Notes: generated from the sequence alone by a model not told the origin. DNA of 64,000 nt from a virus (IMGVR_UViG_3300036770_008730), one strand, 5' to 3'. Counted from the first letter of the stretch, positions 4,360 to 62,430 are shown. Numbers and translations are program-made.

Positions 4360-4417
4360 AAAGTATATATTAATCTAAACCTAGGTCTTTTAATTTCTTT
4401 TGCAATTTTTTTTCATG

Positions 4418-6642: not shown

Positions 6643-6848
6643 TTGTTTTGTTTTAACTTAATTAAGTTTATTATTATTACAATTGTGTTCATCAGGACTA
6701 CCGGATAAGCTTCGTGAAAATATCCATAGATTATAAACATTGAACAAGCAATAGAGTTTATGATTCTGAGTTTCCTAATATCTGTCATTAACATGGATAT
6801 AAGAACTATAATCATAGATAAATATCCCCAACTTTCTAAAAGTGTCAT
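6639..6848 (-). CDS. small inner-membrane protein (YgjV-like)
   Basis: GYLSMIIVLISMLM...KLRIINSIAC...YPVVLMN; three hydrophobic segments. Confidence 0.6.
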   Translation of the reverse strand: MTLLESWGYLSMIIVLISMLMTDIRKLRIINSIACSMFIIYGYFHEAYPVVLMNTIVIIINLIKLKQNK

Positions 6849-7117
6849 ATAACTGGATAATTTATTTGATATGGTTCAATTAAATCTTTTGTATCTTGTT
6901 TTACAAGTGACTCGTAAATAGGAATTAAATCATCATTCATTTTACTTTCACAACAACTAAGAACGAAAAGATACTGGTCATTTGATAGATGAATGAATCC
7001 AGACCTATCGGGATTTAAGAATTTATTTTTTACATTCTTCATTTTATTAGAGTCTATTGTATCTAATACAAAAACTTCTAATGTCGCAATTTGGTTAGAG
7101 GTTAATTTTAATTTCAT
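6845..7117 (-). CDS. hypothetical protein
   Basis: First gene of a coupled minus-strand operon; TATATTTG at 7159-7166. Confidence 0.6.
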   Translation of the reverse strand: MKLKLTSNQIATLEVFVLDTIDSNKMKNVKNKFLNPDRSGFIHLSNDQYLFVLSCCESKMNDDLIPIYESLVKQDTKDLIEPYQINYPVI

Positions 7118-7189
7118 AAAAGTGATATTGAAACTTTTCTGTTTTGTTTATATAAAAACAAATATACAAATAAATTTAAATCAAAAATT

Positions 7190-7915
7190 ATGGACTTAGG
7201 AAAAGAATTCAAAAAATACGCAAAAAGTGAAGGCATATCTTCACTTAACTTACATCACTTCGAAAATAGTATGACACCATATATATTAGAAGAAAGAGAA
7301 ATGAGAGTTACTCAAATGGATATTTTCTCAAGATTGATGAGAGATAGAATCTTATGGGTCGCAGGTGCAGTAGACGATAACATGTCTACGATCGTTCAAG
7401 CTCAGTTAATGTTCTTAGATTCGGTTGAAAAGAAAGATATTACAATGCACATCGACTCACCTGGTGGTTCTGTTAAATCAGGATTATCTATGGTAGATGT
7501 TATGAACTATATCAACTCCGATATTTGCACAATCAATACCGGCATGGCAGCATCTATGGGATCGGTTTTACTCTCATCCGGGACTAAAGGTAAAAGAGCA
7601 TCATTGAGATTTTCAAAAGTTATGACACATCAAGTAAGTCACGGAACTCAAGGTAATATTCAAGATACTCGTATAAATCAGTTAGAAGCTGAAAAATACA
7701 ACTACATTCTATTCAAAATATTAGGTGAGAATTGTGGTAAATCTTATAAAGAAGTTATTGAATGGTCGAGAAGAGATCGTTGGTATAACTCTGATGAAGC
7801 TCTAAAGTTTGGCCTTATTGATGAAATCATAGGTATTGATAAAAGTCCATCCATTGAAAAGTTATTAGAAGGATTTGACGAGTACTACAAAAACGAAGTA
7901 TTAGATAGAAGTTAA
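7190..7915 (+). CDS. clpP: ATP-dependent Clp protease proteolytic subunit
   Basis: DIFSRLMRDRI, IDSPGGSV, AASMGS (Ser), MTHQ (His), RDRW (Asp). Confidence 0.95.
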   Translation: MDLGKEFKKYAKSEGISSLNLHHFENSMTPYILEEREMRVTQMDIFSRLMRDRILWVAGAVDDNMSTIVQAQLMFLDSVEKKDITMHIDSPGGSVKSGLSMVDVMNYINSDICTINTGMAASMGSVLLSSGTKGKRASLRFSKVMTHQVSHGTQGNIQDTRINQLEAEKYNYILFKILGENCGKSYKEVIEWSRRDRWYNSDEALKFGLIDEIIGIDKSPSIEKLLEGFDEYYKNEVLDRS

Positions 7916-16247: not shown

Positions 16248-16496
16248 CTATAATTTATCTTTAAATTTCGAGATTTTATCTTGAATACTTTCTGGTGAAA
16301 ATCCAAATATCAATGCCATTAAAAATATAAACAATACTAAAATCAATACGGATAGGGTAAGAGCCACTGGTATCCATAAAGGTGAAGTAACCCACCACCA
16401 AGACCAATCTATATTGTTAGTTAATTTAAGAATTAAAAAGACGATAAAAAGTAAAGTTGGTAAACCGATTCCAGTTGATGTATTTTTAGACTTCAT
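16248..16496 (-). CDS. small membrane protein of a common phage family
   Basis: LLFIVFLILKLTNNIDWSWWWVTSPLW motif. Confidence 0.75.
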   Translation of the reverse strand: MKSKNTSTGIGLPTLLFIVFLILKLTNNIDWSWWWVTSPLWIPVALTLSVLILVLFIFLMALIFGFSPESIQDKISKFKDKL

Positions 16497-16850: not shown

Positions 16851-17654
16851 TTATACATTTTGTTTTATTATCAAATTTATATTAAAAAACTTTTTCAAAG
16901 TTTCAACGTGTTCAATTAAATCTTCATCCTCATCGTCAACAAACCAATTTATATCTAAATTTTCTATTTTATCTTTTAAATGTTTTAACATTTCAAAAAG
17001 TGTTTTGTTAGAAGATGAGTTAAAATATTCCAAATCAATATTAAGTGTTAGCTTATCAAAATTAAATTTATCAACCTCTTGTATAACTTGTTTATAAAAG
17101 TGAATAGAATTTTCAGGTATAGACCTACCCTCAATTTCCATTTTAGAAATTTCTTTATTTATAGAAACATGTGGTGTTTTATCCGTCTTTGGGATAAAAA
17201 AGAAATTATTAGACTCATCAGTGAGTTTTATTTTATTAATTCTGTTCTGATGTCTACCACCCTCAAAAGCTGTTTTTAGAAAAATATCCACACAAGATAA
17301 TGCATCACTCTCACTAATGTATCTACCCGGTAAAACTAAAACATTAGCATCATTGTGTAATCTAGCCATCTCAGTGATTTCTTTATTCCAACAAAGAGCT
17401 GAACGAATATCATTCCATTTATTTGCTGCCATATTTATACCATTACCAGACCCACAGATTAAAATACCAATATCTGCCTTTTTTGTTGTTACATCTTTAC
17501 AAACAGCATGCGCAAAATCTGCATAGTCACAACTTTCTTTGGATAAACATCCCTTATCAAAAAAGGGTAAGTTTATTTGATTTAAATATGTTTTAATTTT
17601 CTCTTTAATTTCGTAACCAGCGTGGTCAGATCCTATTGAAATATGATTTATCAT
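16851..17654 (-). CDS. rpiB: ribose-5-phosphate isomerase B fused to a C-terminal SiaC/DUF1987-like domain
   Basis: IGSDHAG, ILICGSGNG, ARLHNDAN, FEGGRH; then TDKTPHV...IEGRSIPEN...LEYFNSSSNK...INWFVDDEDED. Confidence 0.85.
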   Translation of the reverse strand: MINHISIGSDHAGYEIKEKIKTYLNQINLPFFDKGCLSKESCDYADFAHAVCKDVTTKKADIGILICGSGNGINMAANKWNDIRSALCWNKEITEMARLHNDANVLVLPGRYISESDALSCVDIFLKTAFEGGRHQNRINKIKLTDESNNFFFIPKTDKTPHVSINKEISKMEIEGRSIPENSIHFYKQVIQEVDKFNFDKLTLNIDLEYFNSSSNKTLFEMLKHLKDKIENLDINWFVDDEDEDLIEHVETLKKFFNINLIIKQNV

Positions 17655-17674: not shown

Positions 17675-18067
17675 CTACAATAGTTTTAATGAAATAAAAA
17701 AAGACTTTATACTTTGTAATTTTAGACCTTCAAGAAATTCATCATCAGAATGAAACTTTCTATCATAACCACTTGAAGTAAAAGAACTTTCTATGGTGTA
17801 GATATAGTTTATATCAAAATCAAATTCATCTGAAATCATTTTGAATGCTCTATCTATCTCATCAGATATTTCTGACCATAAAAAATTTTTTGAATTGCTA
17901 TAACCATATCTTTCTTGTGTTCTTTCATCTACTGGTTTCCAAATTCTTATTGTTAAGGATTCTTCCTCTTCTCCAAAGTCAACTTTAAATCCAGCATCTA
18001 TAATCCAAGCTAAATAACTTTTCAAGTCATCTTTTAACTGTTGTTTTGATTCATTAATTCTTCTCAT
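17675..18067 (-). CDS. tagged hypothetical protein
   Basis: MRRINES start; coupled to the lysozyme gene. Confidence 0.65.
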   Translation of the reverse strand: MRRINESKQQLKDDLKSYLAWIIDAGFKVDFGEEEESLTIRIWKPVDERTQERYGYSNSKNFLWSEISDEIDRAFKMISDEFDFDINYIYTIESSFTSSGYDRKFHSDDEFLEGLKLQSIKSFFISLKLL

Positions 18068-18873
18068 ATTGAATTTAAAAATAATGCACTTTCTTTTTCT
18101 CTTCTATCTGCTAAACCTGGAAAATCATCTGATAGATTAAATTTTTTTATCTTTTCACCGGCTTTCTTAAAATTACCTTTCTTTAATTCTTGCAAGAATT
18201 GACCCTTTCTAAAGATACCAATACCAGAATTATAAGCTATTGAAACCATGGCATCATACATATCCTGGTTTATCATTGTATTATGATCCTTTTCCTCCCA
18301 TTGATGAAAAACTCTTCTAACGCCATCTTCTGCGGTTTTTAAGTCTTGTCTAAGTAATTCTTCTGCCTCTGCTTCTGTAATCTCATCTCCAATTTTGTAT
18401 TTTGAGACATTTACTGACTCAGCATGTCCATATCCTATAGTAATTTTACCATCACCAATTGAATAAGCTCGTAGTTTTAATTTTTCAGAATCTTTTATGT
18501 GATTAATGCCATTTTGTGAAATAGAAAATTCATATCCCTTTTTAAAGTTTGATTTATTGTCTATTGAAATTGCATCTTTTTTTTCTTGATCTTTAGACTG
18601 TTTTTGTAAAACTTCTATTGCGATTTTTTTTGTATCATCATCTACACTTGATGTATTTACGATATTATAAACAGTTGCGGACGCATTAAAAGTAAGCAAT
18701 GTAGCCATAAGATGTTTAAGAACTCTAACTTTAGCTGACTTAGATAAATTTTGTATTTTTTTAGAAACATTATTCCAAATTGAACCGATACTCATTGATT
18801 CATTTACAGAATAGTTGATATAATCAATTATTTGCTGTTCTAAAAAATATTCATAACTTTTAATCTTTTTCAT
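18064..18873 (-). CDS. GH24 phage lysozyme with N-terminal tag and hydrophobic segment
   Basis: HIKDSEKLKLRAYSIGDGKITIGYGH, YDAMVSIAYNSG, GLADRREKE; MKKIKSYEYFLE start; motif at 18879-18888. Confidence 0.85.
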   Translation of the reverse strand: MKKIKSYEYFLEQQIIDYINYSVNESMSIGSIWNNVSKKIQNLSKSAKVRVLKHLMATLLTFNASATVYNIVNTSSVDDDTKKIAIEVLQKQSKDQEKKDAISIDNKSNFKKGYEFSISQNGINHIKDSEKLKLRAYSIGDGKITIGYGHAESVNVSKYKIGDEITEAEAEELLRQDLKTAEDGVRRVFHQWEEKDHNTMINQDMYDAMVSIAYNSGIGIFRKGQFLQELKKGNFKKAGEKIKKFNLSDDFPGLADRREKESALFLNSI

Positions 18874-18938
18874 CAGAGTATATATTAATTATAAATATTA
18901 AGCTCTAAACTCCTTAAATTATTTAATGTATAATCTAT

Positions 18939-19397
18939 ATGAAACTTGCTTTTTTACTTATCATATTTATTTCAACATTTGGGTTTTGTCAAAACTCAGA
19001 GTCCTATTTTGCAATAAGACTAACCGAAGACTTATATGAACATTTTGATAGCTCAGGTGTATTAAGAATGGAGTATCCAGACACGTGCGAATGTGGATTT
19101 GAAATGTCATCAAAGGCTTGGATGTTTGCAAAAAGAATAGATGCTTATGATTCCTTATTATTAAATGAATTGGCAGATGAATGGTTGATTGATGATTTAT
19201 TAAATTCTTTAAAAAAGGAATTTAAGAAAAGAAAATTTGATAGTAAAGAAAGTATTTCTCATATTTACATCAATACCTCAATCATTCCACTGAGTAATAG
19301 ATTTAATATTTTTAGATGGAAGAGAAAAGTTACTTATAGAGTAAAAATGACAATTTATTATAAACCCGTAATTAAAAATGAAAAAAAAGAAAATTGA
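18939..19397 (+). CDS. secreted hypothetical protein
   Basis: Signal peptide MKLAFLLIIFISTFGFC followed by Gln. Confidence 0.65.
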   Translation: MKLAFLLIIFISTFGFCQNSESYFAIRLTEDLYEHFDSSGVLRMEYPDTCECGFEMSSKAWMFAKRIDAYDSLLLNELADEWLIDDLLNSLKKEFKKRKFDSKESISHIYINTSIIPLSNRFNIFRWKRKVTYRVKMTIYYKPVIKNEKKEN

Positions 19398-19872
19398 AAA
19401 GCTATCAATGTTAATAGCTCACGAACTAAATCACCACAGAGAAACACCAATTAAGATTAGTGAAAATATAGACTGGTCCGAATATGATCCAGAGGTAAGT
19501 GAAAAGTTCAAAAAAATGTTTTTTAATCTTCTATCAAACAGAGATAATATTAGACTAGAGGCTAATGATGAGTTAATTTCTATATCAACAGAAGATTTAA
19601 CATCCATAAAAAAAGCCAATAAAAGAAATTCTATTAGTCCTGAAGAACACTATCTTAGAATTGATATTACAAAAGAAGGATTTCAGATTAATAGAGGATA
19701 TAGACAAAGAACTAATTTTATAGACAAAAATATGTATAGTGATTTGATAGAAAAAGTCAAAAAATCTCAGCGAGATTATAACTCAAAGGTTTTCAATGAG
19801 GTTTGGTCAGAAATTATGAAAGACTCCGGTATTGTTAGAGACCACAATTTAGATGAATTATTCAATGGCTAA
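19378..19872 (+). CDS. hypothetical protein with C-terminal RDHNLDELF motif
   Basis: 164 aa ORF. Confidence 0.65.
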   Translation: MKKKKIEKLSMLIAHELNHHRETPIKISENIDWSEYDPEVSEKFKKMFFNLLSNRDNIRLEANDELISISTEDLTSIKKANKRNSISPEEHYLRIDITKEGFQINRGYRQRTNFIDKNMYSDLIEKVKKSQRDYNSKVFNEVWSEIMKDSGIVRDHNLDELFNG

Positions 19873-20260
19873 AGTTTACATAGTTCGTTCTCACTTTGAA
19901 AACTACGAGTCTACAACTTGGAAGATTATAGGTCTTTTCACAACTAAAAAACAAGCTCAAGAAATAGCAAAGAAGTGGGAAGATTTTTATCTAGAAAAGT
20001 CGAATATTTTCAATGAACCAAAAGGATGGACCTTATCTGAAAAGGATATAGAATACGGTAATGAGAATTGGGAAGAGTCTGAAGAATTAGCTATGCGTAG
20101 AATTAAATACGCTGAAATTATTGAGTTCCATGAGATTGTGATTGAAGAGTTTGAACTCGATAAAGACCGTTCACTGGAGATTGAATTTATTACGGATGAT
20201 ATGTTGAGTTTAATGACTCAATGGGATAGAAATTATAAACTAGAAAAAATAATAAAATAA
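19865..20260 (+). CDS. hypothetical protein with C-terminal RNYKLEKII motif
   Basis: Start moved to MAKVYIV at 19865. Confidence 0.65.
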   Translation: MAKVYIVRSHFENYESTTWKIIGLFTTKKQAQEIAKKWEDFYLEKSNIFNEPKGWTLSEKDIEYGNENWEESEELAMRRIKYAEIIEFHEIVIEEFELDKDRSLEIEFITDDMLSLMTQWDRNYKLEKIIK

Positions 20261-21588
<1,328 letters not shown>

Positions 21589-21589
<1 letters not shown>

Positions 21590-21810
21590 TGATAACTTTG
21601 GAATTGTTAAATAAATTTTCACATGAATGTCTAAGATGGAAAGAAGATGTAAATGTTCTTTATTACACCTTAAGCAATTTTTCCGGATCTGAAGGTGTTG
21701 ATATCCACCTTACATTTAATAACGGAGGAGGTGAGTTTGTTAGTAAAGAAAGATATGAAGACTGGTTACAATCAAGAAGAGATGAAAAAATAGATAAAAT
21801 TCTAAATTAA
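21589..21810 (+). CDS. hypothetical protein with C-terminal RDEKIDKIL motif
   Basis: 73 aa, coupled to purA. Confidence 0.65.
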
Positions 21811-21832
21811 TAAAATTCCATATCTTTGTATT

Positions 21833-22273
21833 ATGAAAGATGGTAGAAAAATAGTTTATGTCGATATGGATGATACTCTTTGTGATTTTATAGGGCCATT
21901 CAAATCAGGTGAATATAAAATCAAATTTCCCCAATCAAAGGTTGGATTCTTTTTAGATTTAAAACCTTTGGATTTTGCAATTGAAGGAGTTAAGACATTA
22001 CAAACAAAATACGATGTTTGGATTTTGACTAGACCTTCAATTAAAAATACTCATTGTTATACAGAAAAAGCAGAGTGGATAAAAAAATACTTTGGAGAGG
22101 ATATGTTAAATAAAATGATTCTTTGTCCTGATAAATCTTTAGTCAAAGGTGATTTTCTTATCGATGATGATGTTAAGCACGGACAACCAGAGTTTGAAGG
22201 TGAGTGGTTACATTTTGCCACAGATAAATTTCTTAATTGGAAGTTAGTTGTAGAATATTTAATGAATAAATAA
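21833..22273 (+). CDS. 5'(3')-deoxyribonucleotidase (HAD, NT5C-like)
   Basis: YVDMDDTL, ILTRP, DKSLVKGDFLIDD; TATCTTTG at 21821-21828. Confidence 0.85.
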   Translation: MKDGRKIVYVDMDDTLCDFIGPFKSGEYKIKFPQSKVGFFLDLKPLDFAIEGVKTLQTKYDVWILTRPSIKNTHCYTEKAEWIKKYFGEDMLNKMILCPDKSLVKGDFLIDDDVKHGQPEFEGEWLHFATDKFLNWKLVVEYLMNK

Positions 22274-22274
22274 T

Positions 22275-22493
22275 ATGAAAGAATATCAATATCCAAAACC
22301 AGGTGGAATTTACAGACACTATAAAGGTGGCCTCTATGAGGTATTATTTCTTTCAAAACACACAGAGACAGATGAGATTTTGGTCACTTACAAATCGATA
22401 CATTTTGGTTCTTATTATTCAAGACCACTTGATTCCTGGAATAAACCAGTTGATTTAAATACTAATTCAAAAAGATTTACACTAGAGAAATGA
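22275..22493 (+). CDS. DUF1653 family protein
   Basis: YRHYKGGLYEVLFLSKHTETDEILVTYKS. Confidence 0.8.
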   Translation: MKEYQYPKPGGIYRHYKGGLYEVLFLSKHTETDEILVTYKSIHFGSYYSRPLDSWNKPVDLNTNSKRFTLEK

Positions 22494-23035
22494 CAATAGG
22501 AATATTTGCTTCTGGTAAGGGTAGTAATGCTGAAAACATAATAAGGTATTTTCACAACACAAATCATAAAATTATAATTTTCACTAATAATGAAGATGCT
22601 GGAGTTATTGAAATTGCTTGGACTTTTAATGTAAATTGCATCATATTCAATAAATATGAAAAACTAATTAATATATTAGATTTTAATCAAATAGATTTTA
22701 TTGTTCTGGCTGGATATACTAAGATTATACCACCGGATATTATTGAAAAATACGAAAATAGAATTATCAATATACATCCGTCTTTACTTCCTAAATATGG
22801 TGGTAAAGGAATGTGGGGTATGAATGTTCATAAAAGTGTAATAGAAAATAAAGAAAAAGAGTCAGGAATAACCATTCACTATGTTTCGGAAAATTATGAT
22901 GAGGGTCGAATTATTGAACAACATAAATTAGAGGTTTTACTCTGTGACACACCAGAAACTTTAGCAAAAAAAATCTCTCAATTAGAGAGAGAACATTTTC
23001 CCAAATGCATTAAAAGATTAATCTCCTTCTTTTGA
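22490..23035 (+). CDS. purN: phosphoribosylglycinamide formyltransferase
   Basis: IFASGKGSNA, VLAGY, INIHPSLLPKYGG, SGITIHYVSENYDEG. Confidence 0.92.
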   Translation: MTIGIFASGKGSNAENIIRYFHNTNHKIIIFTNNEDAGVIEIAWTFNVNCIIFNKYEKLINILDFNQIDFIVLAGYTKIIPPDIIEKYENRIINIHPSLLPKYGGKGMWGMNVHKSVIENKEKESGITIHYVSENYDEGRIIEQHKLEVLLCDTPETLAKKISQLEREHFPKCIKRLISFF

Positions 23036-23704
23036 AGATTTTTCGGAAGCATATTTAACACCCATAATTGTTCCCACAATACTAAATGCGTTAGTCAATA
23101 GTATACCAATGATATTACTCCAGGTTGATCCAATTACTTGCGTATCTGTTCCCATTAACATAGCAAATAGATACATAGCGGTAGTAACAACACCAACTCC
23201 TAAAATCACATAAAGAGCTACTCTTACAATTGTTCCAATAAGTTCAAATTGACTTTTTTTCTGAATTAAATCTAAGTCATTTTCCGCAGACTTTTTTGCA
23301 TTTAAGGCTTCTTCTTTTGCTTTCTCAGCCTCATCTTTTGCTTTCTCAGCTTCAATCATAGAATACTCAGCAGATTCTTTTGCAATTTCAGCTTCTTCTC
23401 TAAGTCTCTGAGCCTGTAACATAGCCTCTTCTGAATTTGCTAAAGATTGTTTAAGTTCTTCTTGAATTTTTTCATTTTCTTCTTTCCATTTAACAAGTTC
23501 GTTATTCTGAGACTGAACTTGTCTTGTTATCTCAAGTCTTTTTCTTCTACTCTCTTTATCCTTTTCTATAGAATCTTGAATATATTTTGAAAATTCATCA
23601 TCGTCATCATTTTCAATAACTTTCAAAATATTTCCTTCTAATGAAACTCTTTTCGTTTTGTAAACTTCAAGAAGTTGCTTTTTTGTTTCTTTATTTAATT
23701 TCAT
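23018..23704 (-). CDS. coiled-coil protein with two C-terminal TM helices
   Basis: E/A/K-rich heptads followed by two hydrophobic helices; third gene of the sensor operon. Confidence 0.75.
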   Translation of the reverse strand: MKLNKETKKQLLEVYKTKRVSLEGNILKVIENDDDDEFSKYIQDSIEKDKESRRKRLEITRQVQSQNNELVKWKEENEKIQEELKQSLANSEEAMLQAQRLREEAEIAKESAEYSMIEAEKAKDEAEKAKEEALNAKKSAENDLDLIQKKSQFELIGTIVRVALYVILGVGVVTTAMYLFAMLMGTDTQVIGSTWSNIIGILLTNAFSIVGTIMGVKYASEKSSKEGD

Positions 23705-23707
23705 GAT

Positions 23708-24139
23708 TTATTTATAAACTTTGAACGGCGCTGTTCTATTTTTATAATTAGGAAAATCTTTTTTGAAGTCTTCCAATCTAGGCTCAATATCATCAGACTT
23801 AATAATCCAAAATTGAGCACCAGCTTGTAATGCCTTAGATTGTTCTGTTGGCTCATTTGAAGAAGATATGATACCAATAACAACATGGTTTCCATATTGA
23901 TAGTTGATTCTTCTAATCAATTCAATTCCATCAAAAGATGATCCTACAATGTTCAAGTCTACGAAAACACACTCTGGTTTACCGTCGGAGTTTGCCATCC
24001 ACCCTTTGAATAATTTTTCTGCCTCGTCAGCACTTGTCATACTTTCTAAAGAAAGCGTAATATCTAAAAGACTACAAGCGTCTTCAAAAACTAAATGGAA
24101 TAAATCCTCATCATCGACTAATAAAATTGAATCAATCAT
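23708..24139 (-). CDS. single-domain response regulator (receiver)
   Basis: ILLVDDED, VFVDLN (phospho-Asp), IISSS, WIIKS; start moved to MIDSILL. Confidence 0.9.
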   Translation of the reverse strand: MIDSILLVDDEDLFHLVFEDACSLLDITLSLESMTSADEAEKLFKGWMANSDGKPECVFVDLNIVGSSFDGIELIRRINYQYGNHVVIGIISSSNEPTEQSKALQAGAQFWIIKSDDIEPRLEDFKKDFPNYKNRTAPFKVYK

Positions 24140-26292
24140 ATACTTACTTTTATTTTTAATTTTGTCCCACATTCGGGCAATTTTTCTGCTGTTATTTCAA
24201 ATCCATGTTCGTGTAGTATGGATTTACATATGTTAAGACCTAAACCACTTCCTGTTTCTTGCTGCCCCTCTTTTCTAACATAAGGTTTTGATAAATGTTC
24301 AAATTCTTCTTGACTAATTCCCCTACCATTATCTTCGACACATATATAACTTTTTCTCAAACCGAATTGTTTTCTTTCGGCTTCAAAGTAAATCTTTACA
24401 AATTTTGTTGCACTATCATTATACTTAAGACCATTTCTTATCAGATTATCAATTGAGGTACAGAAAAGAGCCTCATTAACTACCAACACCGGTAAATTTT
24501 CATCTAAAATAACTTGTGACTTATAGGAAGTGCTTGATAAATAATCTTCTAAAATTAATTTTATATTACAAGCCGTTTTAGATAGAACTACTTCTTTTTT
24601 TACTAAGTTAGTAAACTCATATACTCCTTTGTAAACTTTCTGAGTATGTTTTAATCCCTCTTTTATCATTTTTAGAGGAGCTTCTATTTTTAGATTTTTT
24701 ATATCTTCCTCGGTTAGTCTTCTTTCTAATGAACTCACACCTCTTGGAATATAAGTGTTAATTCCTGAGTGCATATCATGTCTCAGTATTTTAGCAGCAT
24801 GTTCCAAGTAAGTATTTTTCTTGTCTATTTCTAATGATTGAATAACTTTATCGGTTATATCAGTCGCTATTTTCATTATACTTATAACACTTCCTTTATT
24901 ATCAAATATTGGATTATATGTCGCTTGAATCCAAACTTCTTTTCCATCTTTTGTTAATCTCTTAAATTCAGATGAAACAAATTGACCGGAACTTAATTTT
25001 TCCCAAAGTTCAACATATTCTTTTGTTGATTTATTTTCGATAAAAATACTATGATGTCTTCCAACTAACTCATTGAGTTCATAACCCATGGATTTGCAGA
25101 AGTTATTATTTGCAAATTTTATATCACCATTAATATCAAACTCAATAACCATATTTGATTGATTAATAGCATCCATTCTGTATCTAAAGTCAAGTTCTTT
25201 TCTTTTTAGTTCACTAACATCTTGTCTTATGGATGTAAATCCAATCAACTCATTCGTATCTGAATCAAATTCCGCCTTTATATAAGTATCAACATAATAT
25301 AGTGTTCCATTTTTAGCTTTATTAGTAACTATCATATTCCATATTTTTTTCTCTTTAATAATAGTCTTATACATTTCTTTCCAAAATTCCTTATTGTGTT
25401 GACCAGAGTTTACTATATTATGATCTTTCCCTAAAACTTCCTCCATACTATAACCAGAAACCTCTGTAAATTTTTTATTAACATAAGTAATTTTACCATT
25501 TGAATCTGCTTTAGAAATAAGTGTTGCTTCATCTATAAATTTTTCTATCTCAATCAATTGTTTCTTTTGTTTATTACCTTCTTTTATAGAATGTGCGAAT
25601 GAATAAAGTGTAGATAACATTTGAGAGAAATTTACCTCTAAACTATTCCAAATTCTTTTTTCTAAACTCTCAATACAAATTACACCAATTACTTTTCCAT
25701 CATACATTATTGGAACATCTAACATTGATTTTATTTCAAGTGGTTGTAAATAAGAATCTTTGAAACAACTAGTAGCTGGATGTGATTCAGCATCATTTGC
25801 CACTATTATAGGATCAACTTGTAAGTGATTAAAGTAAGGCTCAAAGTCTTTTTTTAAAAGCTCAGTGCCAGAATACCAATTATCTTCTTTTTTCACATAT
25901 AATTGTTGACAAATTATAGATGTTTTATCTTTATTATAAAGCCAAATTGAACATCTATCAGTACAAATCGAGTTACAAACTTCCTTTGTAAGCGACATTG
26001 CTCCTTCTCTAACTTTTCCATCATAAAAAGATTGATTTTGAGATTGTAGAACAATGACTTCTTTCAGTTTTTTCTGATAGTCAAATTGTTTAATAATTTG
26101 TTTATTTTTATCCAATAAGTCCTTTATCACAAAATAAAATGGTGGCAGAAATGAAAGGAACAAAATATATCCCATAGCTATCCTAAAGTCAGTAGCCTCA
26201 TAAAAATCAAAAACTAAAAGAGTTTGATTAAGAAAAAATAATATCATTATGATAGCTGCTAAATAGCAGGAAAATTTAGTAAGTTTTTTCAT
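24136..26292 (-). CDS. sensor histidine kinase (2TM-GAF-PAS-PAS-HisKA-HATPase)
   Basis: SMLDVPI...GVICIE GAF; two PAS/PAC repeats; LRHDMHSG H-box; NLIRNGLKYN, EDNGRGI, GSGLGL; motif at 26298-26307. Confidence 0.92.
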   Translation of the reverse strand: MKKLTKFSCYLAAIIMILFFLNQTLLVFDFYEATDFRIAMGYILFLSFLPPFYFVIKDLLDKNKQIIKQFDYQKKLKEVIVLQSQNQSFYDGKVREGAMSLTKEVCNSICTDRCSIWLYNKDKTSIICQQLYVKKEDNWYSGTELLKKDFEPYFNHLQVDPIIVANDAESHPATSCFKDSYLQPLEIKSMLDVPIMYDGKVIGVICIESLEKRIWNSLEVNFSQMLSTLYSFAHSIKEGNKQKKQLIEIEKFIDEATLISKADSNGKITYVNKKFTEVSGYSMEEVLGKDHNIVNSGQHNKEFWKEMYKTIIKEKKIWNMIVTNKAKNGTLYYVDTYIKAEFDSDTNELIGFTSIRQDVSELKRKELDFRYRMDAINQSNMVIEFDINGDIKFANNNFCKSMGYELNELVGRHHSIFIENKSTKEYVELWEKLSSGQFVSSEFKRLTKDGKEVWIQATYNPIFDNKGSVISIMKIATDITDKVIQSLEIDKKNTYLEHAAKILRHDMHSGINTYIPRGVSSLERRLTEEDIKNLKIEAPLKMIKEGLKHTQKVYKGVYEFTNLVKKEVVLSKTACNIKLILEDYLSSTSYKSQVILDENLPVLVVNEALFCTSIDNLIRNGLKYNDSATKFVKIYFEAERKQFGLRKSYICVEDNGRGISQEEFEHLSKPYVRKEGQQETGSGLGLNICKSILHEHGFEITAEKLPECGTKLKIKVSI

Positions 26293-26392
26293 CCGATTAT
26301 ATATTAATTTTGAAACTAAAATTAAAGTCTCTATATAAATATTCTAGATTATCCAAAAAATCATGTAACATCATGATAGTATTATTATATTA

Positions 26393-30530: not shown

Positions 30531-31367
30531 TTATGCCAATTCCTCAACTTGTTTTTTACTTCTCATCATTTCATATGCTCTAGCTAATCTAGTCATTCCA
30601 ATTCCACCACCGAATCTTGGAAAGAATTCATATCCTAAGAATAATTCTAATTCTTTTTCAACTCTCTCTTTACCAAACAATTCGAATAGTTTTGAACAAT
30701 ATTTACCATCTTCTATTGTGTAAAACATTTCTCTCATTTTTTCTACATCACAACTTCTTTCAGCTGATCCAATAGTTTCTTGACCATAAAGAATAACATC
30801 TACTTTATTAAATATCCCATCTTTGTTATGTTGCATATTCCAGAAAGGATTAGTTCTCAGTGGGAAGTTTTGAAGTGACACAACCGCTCCTTTTTCATTC
30901 CACATTTTTTGTTCGTGTTCATTTTCTAAAATTGGAACTCCACCGTATTCTTGACAAACATCTTCATAGTTTACTTCTACTGGTTTATCAAATCCTAAAT
31001 AATCTAAAAGTTCTGATTCTAATTTAAGTAGTTCTTTCATACCACCCTTTGACTCGAACTCAAACATTGGGAAGATTAATTCATGTCTTCCAGGAATTGG
31101 ATTTTTTTCTTGTCTGTAAGAAGTTGAGATACAGAAGCATCCTTCCCAAGTTGGATTCATAAGTAGTTCGTGTTCTAACCACATTTGACCTGTTTGTGGA
31201 AGAGGCCATACTTCACCACAATAATTGTAGGTGGTGATTGAGTGAGGATTTTCACACGCTGCTAAGATTGATAATCTTGATTGTGTTGGTACTTCGATGA
31301 AGTTTTTTTGCAAAAAAAATGCTCGCATCTTTTGTACGAGCTCATGATAAGTTTTTGTGTTTCTCAT
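30531..31367 (-). CDS. class II aaRS-like catalytic domain only (Asn/Asp-RS-like; archaeal-type asparagine synthetase-like)
   Basis: FIEVPT, LPQTGQ, SYRQE...GRH, ETIGSAER, GGGIGMTRL; no anticodon-binding domain; start moved to MRNTK. Confidence 0.75.
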   Translation of the reverse strand: MRNTKTYHELVQKMRAFFLQKNFIEVPTQSRLSILAACENPHSITTYNYCGEVWPLPQTGQMWLEHELLMNPTWEGCFCISTSYRQEKNPIPGRHELIFPMFEFESKGGMKELLKLESELLDYLGFDKPVEVNYEDVCQEYGGVPILENEHEQKMWNEKGAVVSLQNFPLRTNPFWNMQHNKDGIFNKVDVILYGQETIGSAERSCDVEKMREMFYTIEDGKYCSKLFELFGKERVEKELELFLGYEFFPRFGGGIGMTRLARAYEMMRSKKQVEELA

Positions 31368-31556
31368 AGGAAATTTTTTTTTTGATACAGTTTTTACGCC
31401 GTTCCAAAAAAAATAATTCTTTGTATATATCAAAATATTGTTTCTCCTTTTCAAATTTTTTTTAGAAAATTTCACAGATGATTATACAACTACTAATTTT
31501 ATTAGTATTTTCATAATTTTTTTTTATATATAATTTGTAAAAAAATAAAAATCAAA

Positions 31557-43294: not shown

Positions 43295-43353
43295 TCAACA
43301 TTTTTTTCAAGACTTAGTATAACTTAATATATATACAAAGATTTGAAAATTTT

Positions 43354-62399: not shown

Positions 62400-62430
62400 A
62401 ATTTATATATCCACATTTAATATATACATT

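Follow-up and report, generated by a model that had tools for sequence, protein, structure and literature searches.

Why would a phage encode a complete sensor kinase and receiver pair that has no DNA-binding output domain, and on what would such a pair act? The question is raised by a locus in a 64,000-nucleotide (nt) stretch of the viral sequence IMGVR_UViG_3300036770_008730 (the window). The phage is uncultured and has a genome of ~0.6 Mb; the kinase is on record within a 598,435-bp sequence. Positions 23018-26292 of the window are filled by three coupled open reading frames (ORFs) on the minus strand, encoding a sensor kinase, a receiver and a third protein with a coiled coil and a membrane hairpin. 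A reading made from the sequence alone (the original prediction) had described these three coupled genes, and our ORF map confirmed both their place and their strand. Here we argue that the genes probably encode a working relay in which the third protein is the output. We give an even chance to the proposal that this output acts on lysis, and we are equally divided over the full picture, in which a self-contained phage phosphorelay would control lysis through a membrane protein and not through a transcription factor. The three genes are as follows.

24136..26292, minus strand: sensor histidine kinase of 718 amino acids (aa), with two transmembrane (TM) segments followed by GAF, PAS, PAS, DHp and catalytic domains (Pfam, hydropathy, alignment)

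23708..24139, minus strand: receiver-only response regulator of 143 aa (Pfam Response_reg), whose start overlaps the kinase stop (ATGA)

23018..23704, minus strand: candidate output protein of 228 aa, with an N-terminal domain (N-domain), a coiled coil and a two-helix membrane hairpin (alignment A1, AlphaFold2, hydropathy)

Hydropathy analysis placed the TM segments of the kinase at residues ~10-28 and ~38-56, with a linking loop of ~9 residues. Using Pfam, we found the GAF domain at residues 101-231, the PAS domains at ~256-360 and 379-482, and HATPase_c at 614-716, the last with 54.6 bits against a cut-off of 26.4. The DHp domain was recognised solely by alignment with kinases in the PDB: residues 480-718 align to the solved kinases 8f71 and HK853 (3dge), and H505, which sits in an LRHDMH stretch, falls on their phospho-histidine. 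H505, N616, N620, D654-x-G-x-G658 and G681-x-G683-x-G685 were invariant among 19 kinase homologues. Hydropathy, the Pfam domains and the alignment at H505 thus confirm the membrane GAF-PAS-PAS histidine kinase that had been predicted. The protein has no periplasmic domain, and its GAF and both PAS domains are cytoplasmic; therefore the cue should be intracellular or lie within the membrane. This narrows the original prediction, which had proposed sensing of host or environmental state: a cue from the cell interior or the membrane fits, whereas the outside environment does not fit cytoplasmic sensors. Arg57, His58 and Asp60, which we take to be the FAD-binding residues of Aer, are not kept in the first PAS domain, as judged by eye, which speaks tentatively against flavin binding there.

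In the receiver, Response_reg was the sole family match (38.6 bits against a cut-off of 30.2 in Pfam), and neither Pfam nor NCBIfam revealed an output domain in its 143 residues. The predicted lack of a DNA-binding output was therefore upheld, as was the description of a stand-alone receiver with an intact phospho-site, since D9, D10, D61, S92 and K114, and W111 as well, were invariant in 10 homologues (mean column identity, 85%). The receiver almost certainly starts at the ATG at 24139, judging from the compared relatives, which begin there with MI(D/N)S or MIDT. A 154-aa version of the ORF, beginning at 24172, is the less likely alternative.

The third gene begins 3 nt past the receiver stop. 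Alignment A1 divides its product into a conserved N-domain (residues 1-70), a coiled coil whose length depends on the phage, and a highly conserved hairpin (~155-216), within which hydropathy placed TM segments at ~155-173 and ~198-216. AlphaFold2 modelled a single long helix from residue 36 to 184 and a second helix from 189 to 226. The protein belongs to no family in Pfam, PHROG or NCBIfam, where only chance-level coiled-coil matches and a weak match to phrog_1544 (function unknown) were obtained. An exhaustive profile search returned 264 representatives at 50% identity. For the kinase, more than 100 cluster representatives, 61-84% identical to it, lie on contigs of up to 591 kb. The original prediction had called complete sensor modules of this kind unusual in lytic phages; these numbers contradict that view.

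We then compared the gene order of related loci. The order kinase-receiver-hairpin was kept in all 17 of the 17 IMG/VR loci that reach beyond the kinase and on four contigs from metagenome-assembled genomes (MAGs), so that the comparison of synteny proposed in the original prediction found the trio in order wherever the flank suffices. On one of the four MAG contigs (L028, 5563-6557), neither the receiver nor the hairpin gene is intact, each being broken into two frames; this copy is decaying or the contig was misassembled. Kinase, receiver and third gene were the only families present in all compared loci. All three genes are under purifying selection: against the closest relative, L116, the ratio of nonsynonymous to synonymous substitution rates was lowest in the receiver (0.024), followed by the third gene (0.11) and the kinase (0.29). 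No other part of the cassette is as well conserved as the receiver. The possibility raised beforehand that the module is sporadic or degenerate does not agree with the kept synteny, the intact catalytic residues and the purifying selection.

These data also bear on whether the trio is a bacterial passenger without any role in the phage life cycle. Such an origin could be read from the flanks, which differ between phages and which in the window consist of auxiliary metabolic genes (purA, a formyltransferase and a 5'-nucleotidase). However, a passenger should not be expected to show purifying selection on all three genes or an invariant synteny over many phage lineages, and on these grounds we reject the proposal as highly improbable. 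The distribution of the third protein argues in the same direction. Its clusters in the ESM Atlas were 94-100% viral, and a scan of 185,579 species (one genome each) found the hairpin on 8 contigs only. All 8 were MAG contigs, with clashing phylum labels and a G+C content (GC) of 0.31 to 0.66, and at least four of them carry phage lysis genes. Finally, the operon in the window has a phage promoter-like motif in front and a terminator behind:

26298..26307, minus strand: TTAATATATA, promoter-like motif, 5 nt upstream of the kinase ATG

22974..22992, minus strand: terminator-like hairpin followed by T8, 26 nt downstream of the third gene, marking the operon end

The sensor part of the cassette is variable. 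Loci with GAF and two PAS domains, with GAF and one PAS domain, without GAF, or with a second kinase were found, and despite this variation the core of the kinase stayed constant, as did the receiver and the third protein. At L001, L008/L009 and L021 another kinase, shorter but with an identical H-box, lies between the first kinase and the receiver, a gene order that provides one receiver with two sensors.

The sensors also occur joined directly to the hairpin. A single gene of 372-385 aa encoding PAS-PAS-coil-hairpin, with neither kinase nor receiver, was found on four MAG contigs and at 80 IMG/VR loci, each of the latter spanning essentially the entire fusion gene. The PAS domains of these proteins are up to 46% identical to the PAS region of the kinase, and their hairpins are 60-67% identical to that of the third protein. 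Other combinations exist. In P0136, a GAF domain matches kinase residues ~72-238 (50% identity over a 246-column BLASTP match) and a further stretch is 54% identical to residues 59-221 of the third protein; P0182 is a PAS-coil-hairpin protein with a single PAS domain. Because PAS and GAF domains related to those of the kinase are fused to the hairpin, the hairpin appears to be the common output of the kinase's sensor domains.

The N-domain of the third protein behaves as a separate module. It also precedes a soluble HisKA-HATPase_c core in P0249, P0255, P0267 and P0269, which have the order N-domain, coil, HisKA, HATPase_c. At L109, L113 and L114, a 143-aa receiver is encoded directly upstream of such an N-domain-kinase gene; the L109 receiver is 73% identical to that of the window, and at L113 and L114 the receiver is itself preceded by a PAS kinase. 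Thus the receiver always precedes a protein with the N-domain of the third gene, those with kinase-core endings included. This pairing outlasts the change of output domain, as would be expected if the N-domain were the dock of the receiver, and we infer that the N-domain is its docking site. Complex prediction, in which the receiver was combined with the first 160 residues of the third protein, gave a score of 0.02, which counts neither way. With the invariant trio, the sensor-hairpin fusions and the receiver/N-domain pairing taken together, no candidate for the output is better than the coiled-coil protein, which the original prediction had suggested as a possibility.

A different arrangement, which we regard as rather improbable, would have the receiver act mainly on host proteins, or the kinase cross-talk with host regulators, and would reduce the third protein to a scaffold or anchor. 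Receiver-only proteins such as CheY and DivK work by contact and can have several targets; moreover, it is the receiver that is most conserved within the cassette, and the solved structure that matches it best, 3ilh, is that of a stand-alone regulator from a bacterium. However, receivers are 65-76% identical across cassette contigs whose GC ranges from 0.42 to 0.66. This range implies very different hosts, and receivers so alike across it are more easily reconciled with a target encoded by the phage than with a host protein. The invariant polar and small residues of the hairpin exceed what an anchor needs, and the sensor-hairpin fusions do without a receiver.

What, then, would the hairpin act on? 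To approach this, the ORFs neighbouring the fusion loci were clustered and the main families named with Pfam. The families near the fusion gene were Glyco_hydro_19 (GH19), PG_binding_1, Phage_lysozyme, Peptidase_M15_3, Phage_holin_4_1, a small two-TM protein and spanin-like proteins. A gene for GH19, PG_binding_1, Phage_lysozyme or Peptidase_M15_3 lies within 4 ORFs in 67 of the 84 fusion loci; the median gap between such an endolysin-type gene and the fusion gene is 246 nt, over 18 arrangements. Phage_holin_4_1 was found near the fusion gene in 28 loci. For the GAF fusion, genes for GH19 and glucosaminidase are found at a distance of 1.1 kb. The three-gene form adjoins a GH19 or PG-binding endolysin at L001, L017 and the loci grouped with L002, L008 and L012, that is, in five of ~eleven lineages, and the endolysin gene stands upstream or downstream of the trio and on either strand. 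Judged by these neighbourhoods, the family is linked to lysis genes.

A small protein of 82-106 aa frequently accompanies the fusion gene. Its gene is at most two ORFs away in 44 of the 84 loci and immediately adjacent, on either side, in 40 (L029-L108). It matched no Pfam or PHROG family and has two TM segments by eye, or one by a 19-residue hydropathy scan. In the L004 group, the gene after the cassette encodes a distantly related protein. This protein may be the membrane partner of the hairpin.

The motif in front of the kinase may also bear on the time of expression. The window contains 20 copies of TTAATATATA where 1.2 would be expected, far beyond chance, and 19 of the 20 lie 4-25 nt upstream of the ATG of an ORF, in spacing classes of 4-5 nt and 17-25 nt (examples are 4364-4373, 18879-18888, 43324-43333 and 62417-62426). 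By number and position it is a genome-wide promoter-like element. If it is a -10-type element, the short-spacing class would yield nearly leaderless transcripts. The copy before the kinase belongs to this class, at a measured gap of 5 nt and not the 6 nt first given. The motif also precedes a gp5-like baseplate hub (43354), a gene for a lysozyme-domain protein (18873; gap 5 nt) and several proteins with a capsid-targeting-like N terminus. Because of these companions, the label of a late-type element given in the original prediction is a fair one, and a late-type promoter-like role is plausible. It does not extend to an exact motif shared with relatives: TTAATATATA is absent upstream of the kinase in the loci of related phages. 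The closer relatives L116, L117, L001 and L008 have degenerate ATATATA cores at this place, and another group of relatives has ATATTTAT. The T4 late consensus, TATAAATA, is not positioned before genes in the window.

Several observations weigh against a lysis-controlling relay. Many of the fusion loci are close kin (75-84% identical), and 67 of 84 is not a number of independent counts. The cassette loci L011 and L021-L023 have no endolysin nearby. In the window, the nearest lysozyme-domain gene lies 4.1 kb from the cassette, past an inserted block of purine genes:

18064..18873, minus strand: lysozyme-domain protein of 269 aa, a possible once-adjacent lysis partner (Phage_lysozyme, PHROG endolysin families)

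This protein matches Phage_lysozyme at 2.2e-26 in Pfam and matches PHROG endolysin families. It starts with a capsid-targeting-like peptide and may be a virion enzyme rather than an endolysin. The hairpin matched no holin, antiholin or lysis family in Pfam, PHROGs or NCBIfam, and the model of the third protein gave no fold match in the PDB at E <= 0.001, a search for which a single long helix is a poor query. The conservation of the hairpin (54-67% identity in pairwise matches, 60 invariant columns in A1, many of its invariant residues being polar or small) is far above the norm for holins and could reflect another conserved membrane role. For the relay itself, no HisKA-type family of Pfam was matched in the kinase at E <= 0.01, and K114 of the receiver is followed by an invariant S115 in place of the usual Pro, a feature common to the whole phage family. 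The sequencing runs listed with this sequence are DNA metagenomes of subsurface, freshwater, lagoon and marine origin; no RNA run is among them.

From part of this evidence one can construct a relay that is real and has the hairpin as its output, with a task other than lysis: a block to superinfection or DNA entry, control of ion flow or the proton-motive force, or organisation of the membrane during assembly. Nearness to lysis genes would then be mere clustering of late membrane-protein genes. The missing holin family match and the unusual conservation of the hairpin would both be accounted for, as would the recognisable Phage_holin_4_1 already present in many loci and the lack of an adjacent endolysin at several trio loci and in the window. 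Mere clustering, however, does not readily explain four endolysin families linked through 18 arrangements with so short a median gap, nor a linkage found independently in the PAS-fused, the GAF-fused and the three-gene forms. We consider such another task unlikely, though not negligibly so.

For the lysis reading, the gap in the window has a possible history. The lysozyme-domain gene shares its strand and the motif TTAATATATA with the cassette, and the related phage L117 (591 kb) has the same layout with a shorter island and with a GH108 enzyme where the window has the GH24-type lysozyme domain. For these two reasons, the arrangement suggests that the purine block split an older pair of cassette and lysozyme gene. 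The link to lysis timing in the original prediction thus holds at the level of the family, where fusion and trio loci lie near endolysin genes, and not for this window, whose cassette is not beside lysis genes.

We propose the following mechanism. The kinase would be anchored by its two TM helices and would read an intracellular or membrane cue with its GAF and two PAS domains. It would autophosphorylate on H505 and pass the phosphate to D61 of the receiver. The phosphorylated receiver would then bind the N-domain of the third protein, and the signal would travel along the long, probably dimeric, coiled coil to the hairpin. There, in the membrane, the hairpin would modulate the holin-endolysin system in a holin-like or antiholin-like manner, so that the time of lysis follows the sensed state. 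The hairpin is more likely a regulator (an antiholin or a trigger) than the sole holin, because many loci also hold a recognisable holin. More tentatively, and here we stop somewhat short of even confidence, the hairpin could be the effector of a modular, phage-only class of signal-gated lysis regulators that receive their input either from fused PAS or GAF domains or from a docked phospho-receiver.

The surroundings of the cassette are in part metabolic. It is flanked on one side by a metallophosphatase gene and on the other by the plus-strand block 18939-23035, which includes genes for purA (adenylosuccinate synthetase), an NT5C-like 5'-nucleotidase and a PurN-like formyltransferase. Downstream of the lysozyme-domain gene, the same strand encodes a protein of 82 aa (16248-16496, minus) that has two or three hydrophobic segments and might be the holin of this phage, although it matches no family. 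At 16851-17654 (minus), a ribose-5-phosphate isomerase B domain (LacAB_rpiB) and a domain of the SiaC-family regulatory phosphoproteins are encoded in a single ORF; L117 has RpiB alone at this place. A short class II aminoacyl-tRNA-synthetase-like protein of 314 aa (Pfam tRNA-synt_2) is encoded at 30531-31475 (minus), and a tRNA-synt_2 protein near the cassette is present in L117 as well (6699-7535, 278 aa) and is thus kept in both huge phages. The window as a whole has a GC of ~30% and contains the baseplate hub, a helicase and many orphan ORFs; no tRNA genes were found in it. Among INPHARED phages, a near DNA match was absent and protein matches were only partial (the PAS or the ATPase domain), and no cultured relative was found there.

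Phage lysis timing is usually seen as a hard-wired holin clock, to which lysis inhibition in T-even phages is the classic exception. This picture would change if a sensor system linked to lysis genes were widespread. If the proposal is correct, many environmental phages, with sequences ranging from ~30-kb contigs to 0.6-Mb genomes, would time the bursting of the host by an intracellular signal, and many aquatic phages would adapt the moment of lysis to the condition of the cell that they infect, which bears on burst size and on ecological models. It would also be the first case in which a two-component output is relayed by a coiled coil to a hairpin in the membrane, instead of being directed at DNA, an enzyme or a motor. 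With it would come a new class of receiver output and a new small docking domain, one that is found on outputs of both the membrane and the kinase type. The fused forms are convenient for experiments: they have just two parts (sensor and hairpin) and lie beside a known holin and endolysin.

In the literature on huge and jumbo phages, two-component systems, holins and antiholins, we found no description of the trio or of PAS-hairpin proteins. The nearest cellular analogue is the staphylococcal LytSR system with LrgAB/CidAB. LytSR senses the collapse of membrane potential and controls the holin-like LrgAB/CidAB by transcription (PMC2996381). Like the trio, it is a two-component system tied to membrane proteins whose genes lie directly downstream of the regulator (PMC2996381). 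The differences are considerable. LytR binds DNA, whereas the phage receiver has neither LytTR nor any other output domain; LytS is a multi-TM sensor, whereas the phage kinase has two TM segments and cytoplasmic GAF and PAS domains; and LytSR is cellular, the trio viral. Family scans with Pfam and NCBIfam found no sequence relation between LrgA/CidA and the hairpin.

Among phages, the nearest analogue is lysis inhibition in T4, in which the antiholins RI and RIII act on the holin T (PMC11413866, PMC8385771, PMC6832632). In both cases a phage-encoded sensor would delay the triggering of the holin upon a signal, and the phage of the window is itself T4-like in its gp5-like hub. However, RI is a periplasmic sensor of superinfection and contacts the holin itself, without kinase, receiver, PAS or GAF. 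The sensors of the trio are cytoplasmic, and its hairpin protein belongs to no PHROG lysis family.

Receiver-only pathways are well established in bacteria, for example CheY with FliM and DivK with DivL/PleC, and PAS kinases paired with stand-alone receivers are likewise known. The phage receiver resembles CheY and DivK in having no output domain and in its presumed binding to a partner protein, and the receivers encoded before N-domain-kinase proteins recall the control of a second kinase by DivK. It differs from them in its partner, which has no Pfam domain and consists of N-domain, coil and hairpin, in the Ser after the conserved Lys, and in being part of a system that is viral throughout.

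Class II holins and pinholins, such as S21-68, have two TM helices and are encoded in the lysis cassette. The hairpin shares with them the two TM segments, a probable N-in/C-in topology, GxxxG-like small-residue motifs and, at the level of the family, the position in the lysis cassette. In contrast to class II holins, it is preceded by ~150 residues of cytoplasmic coiled coil and input domain, matches no holin profile and often has a recognisable holin alongside; the formation of a hole by it is hypothetical. Set beside these systems, the kinase and the receiver of the phage appear ordinary, and the new part would be the viral membrane hairpin that serves as their output.

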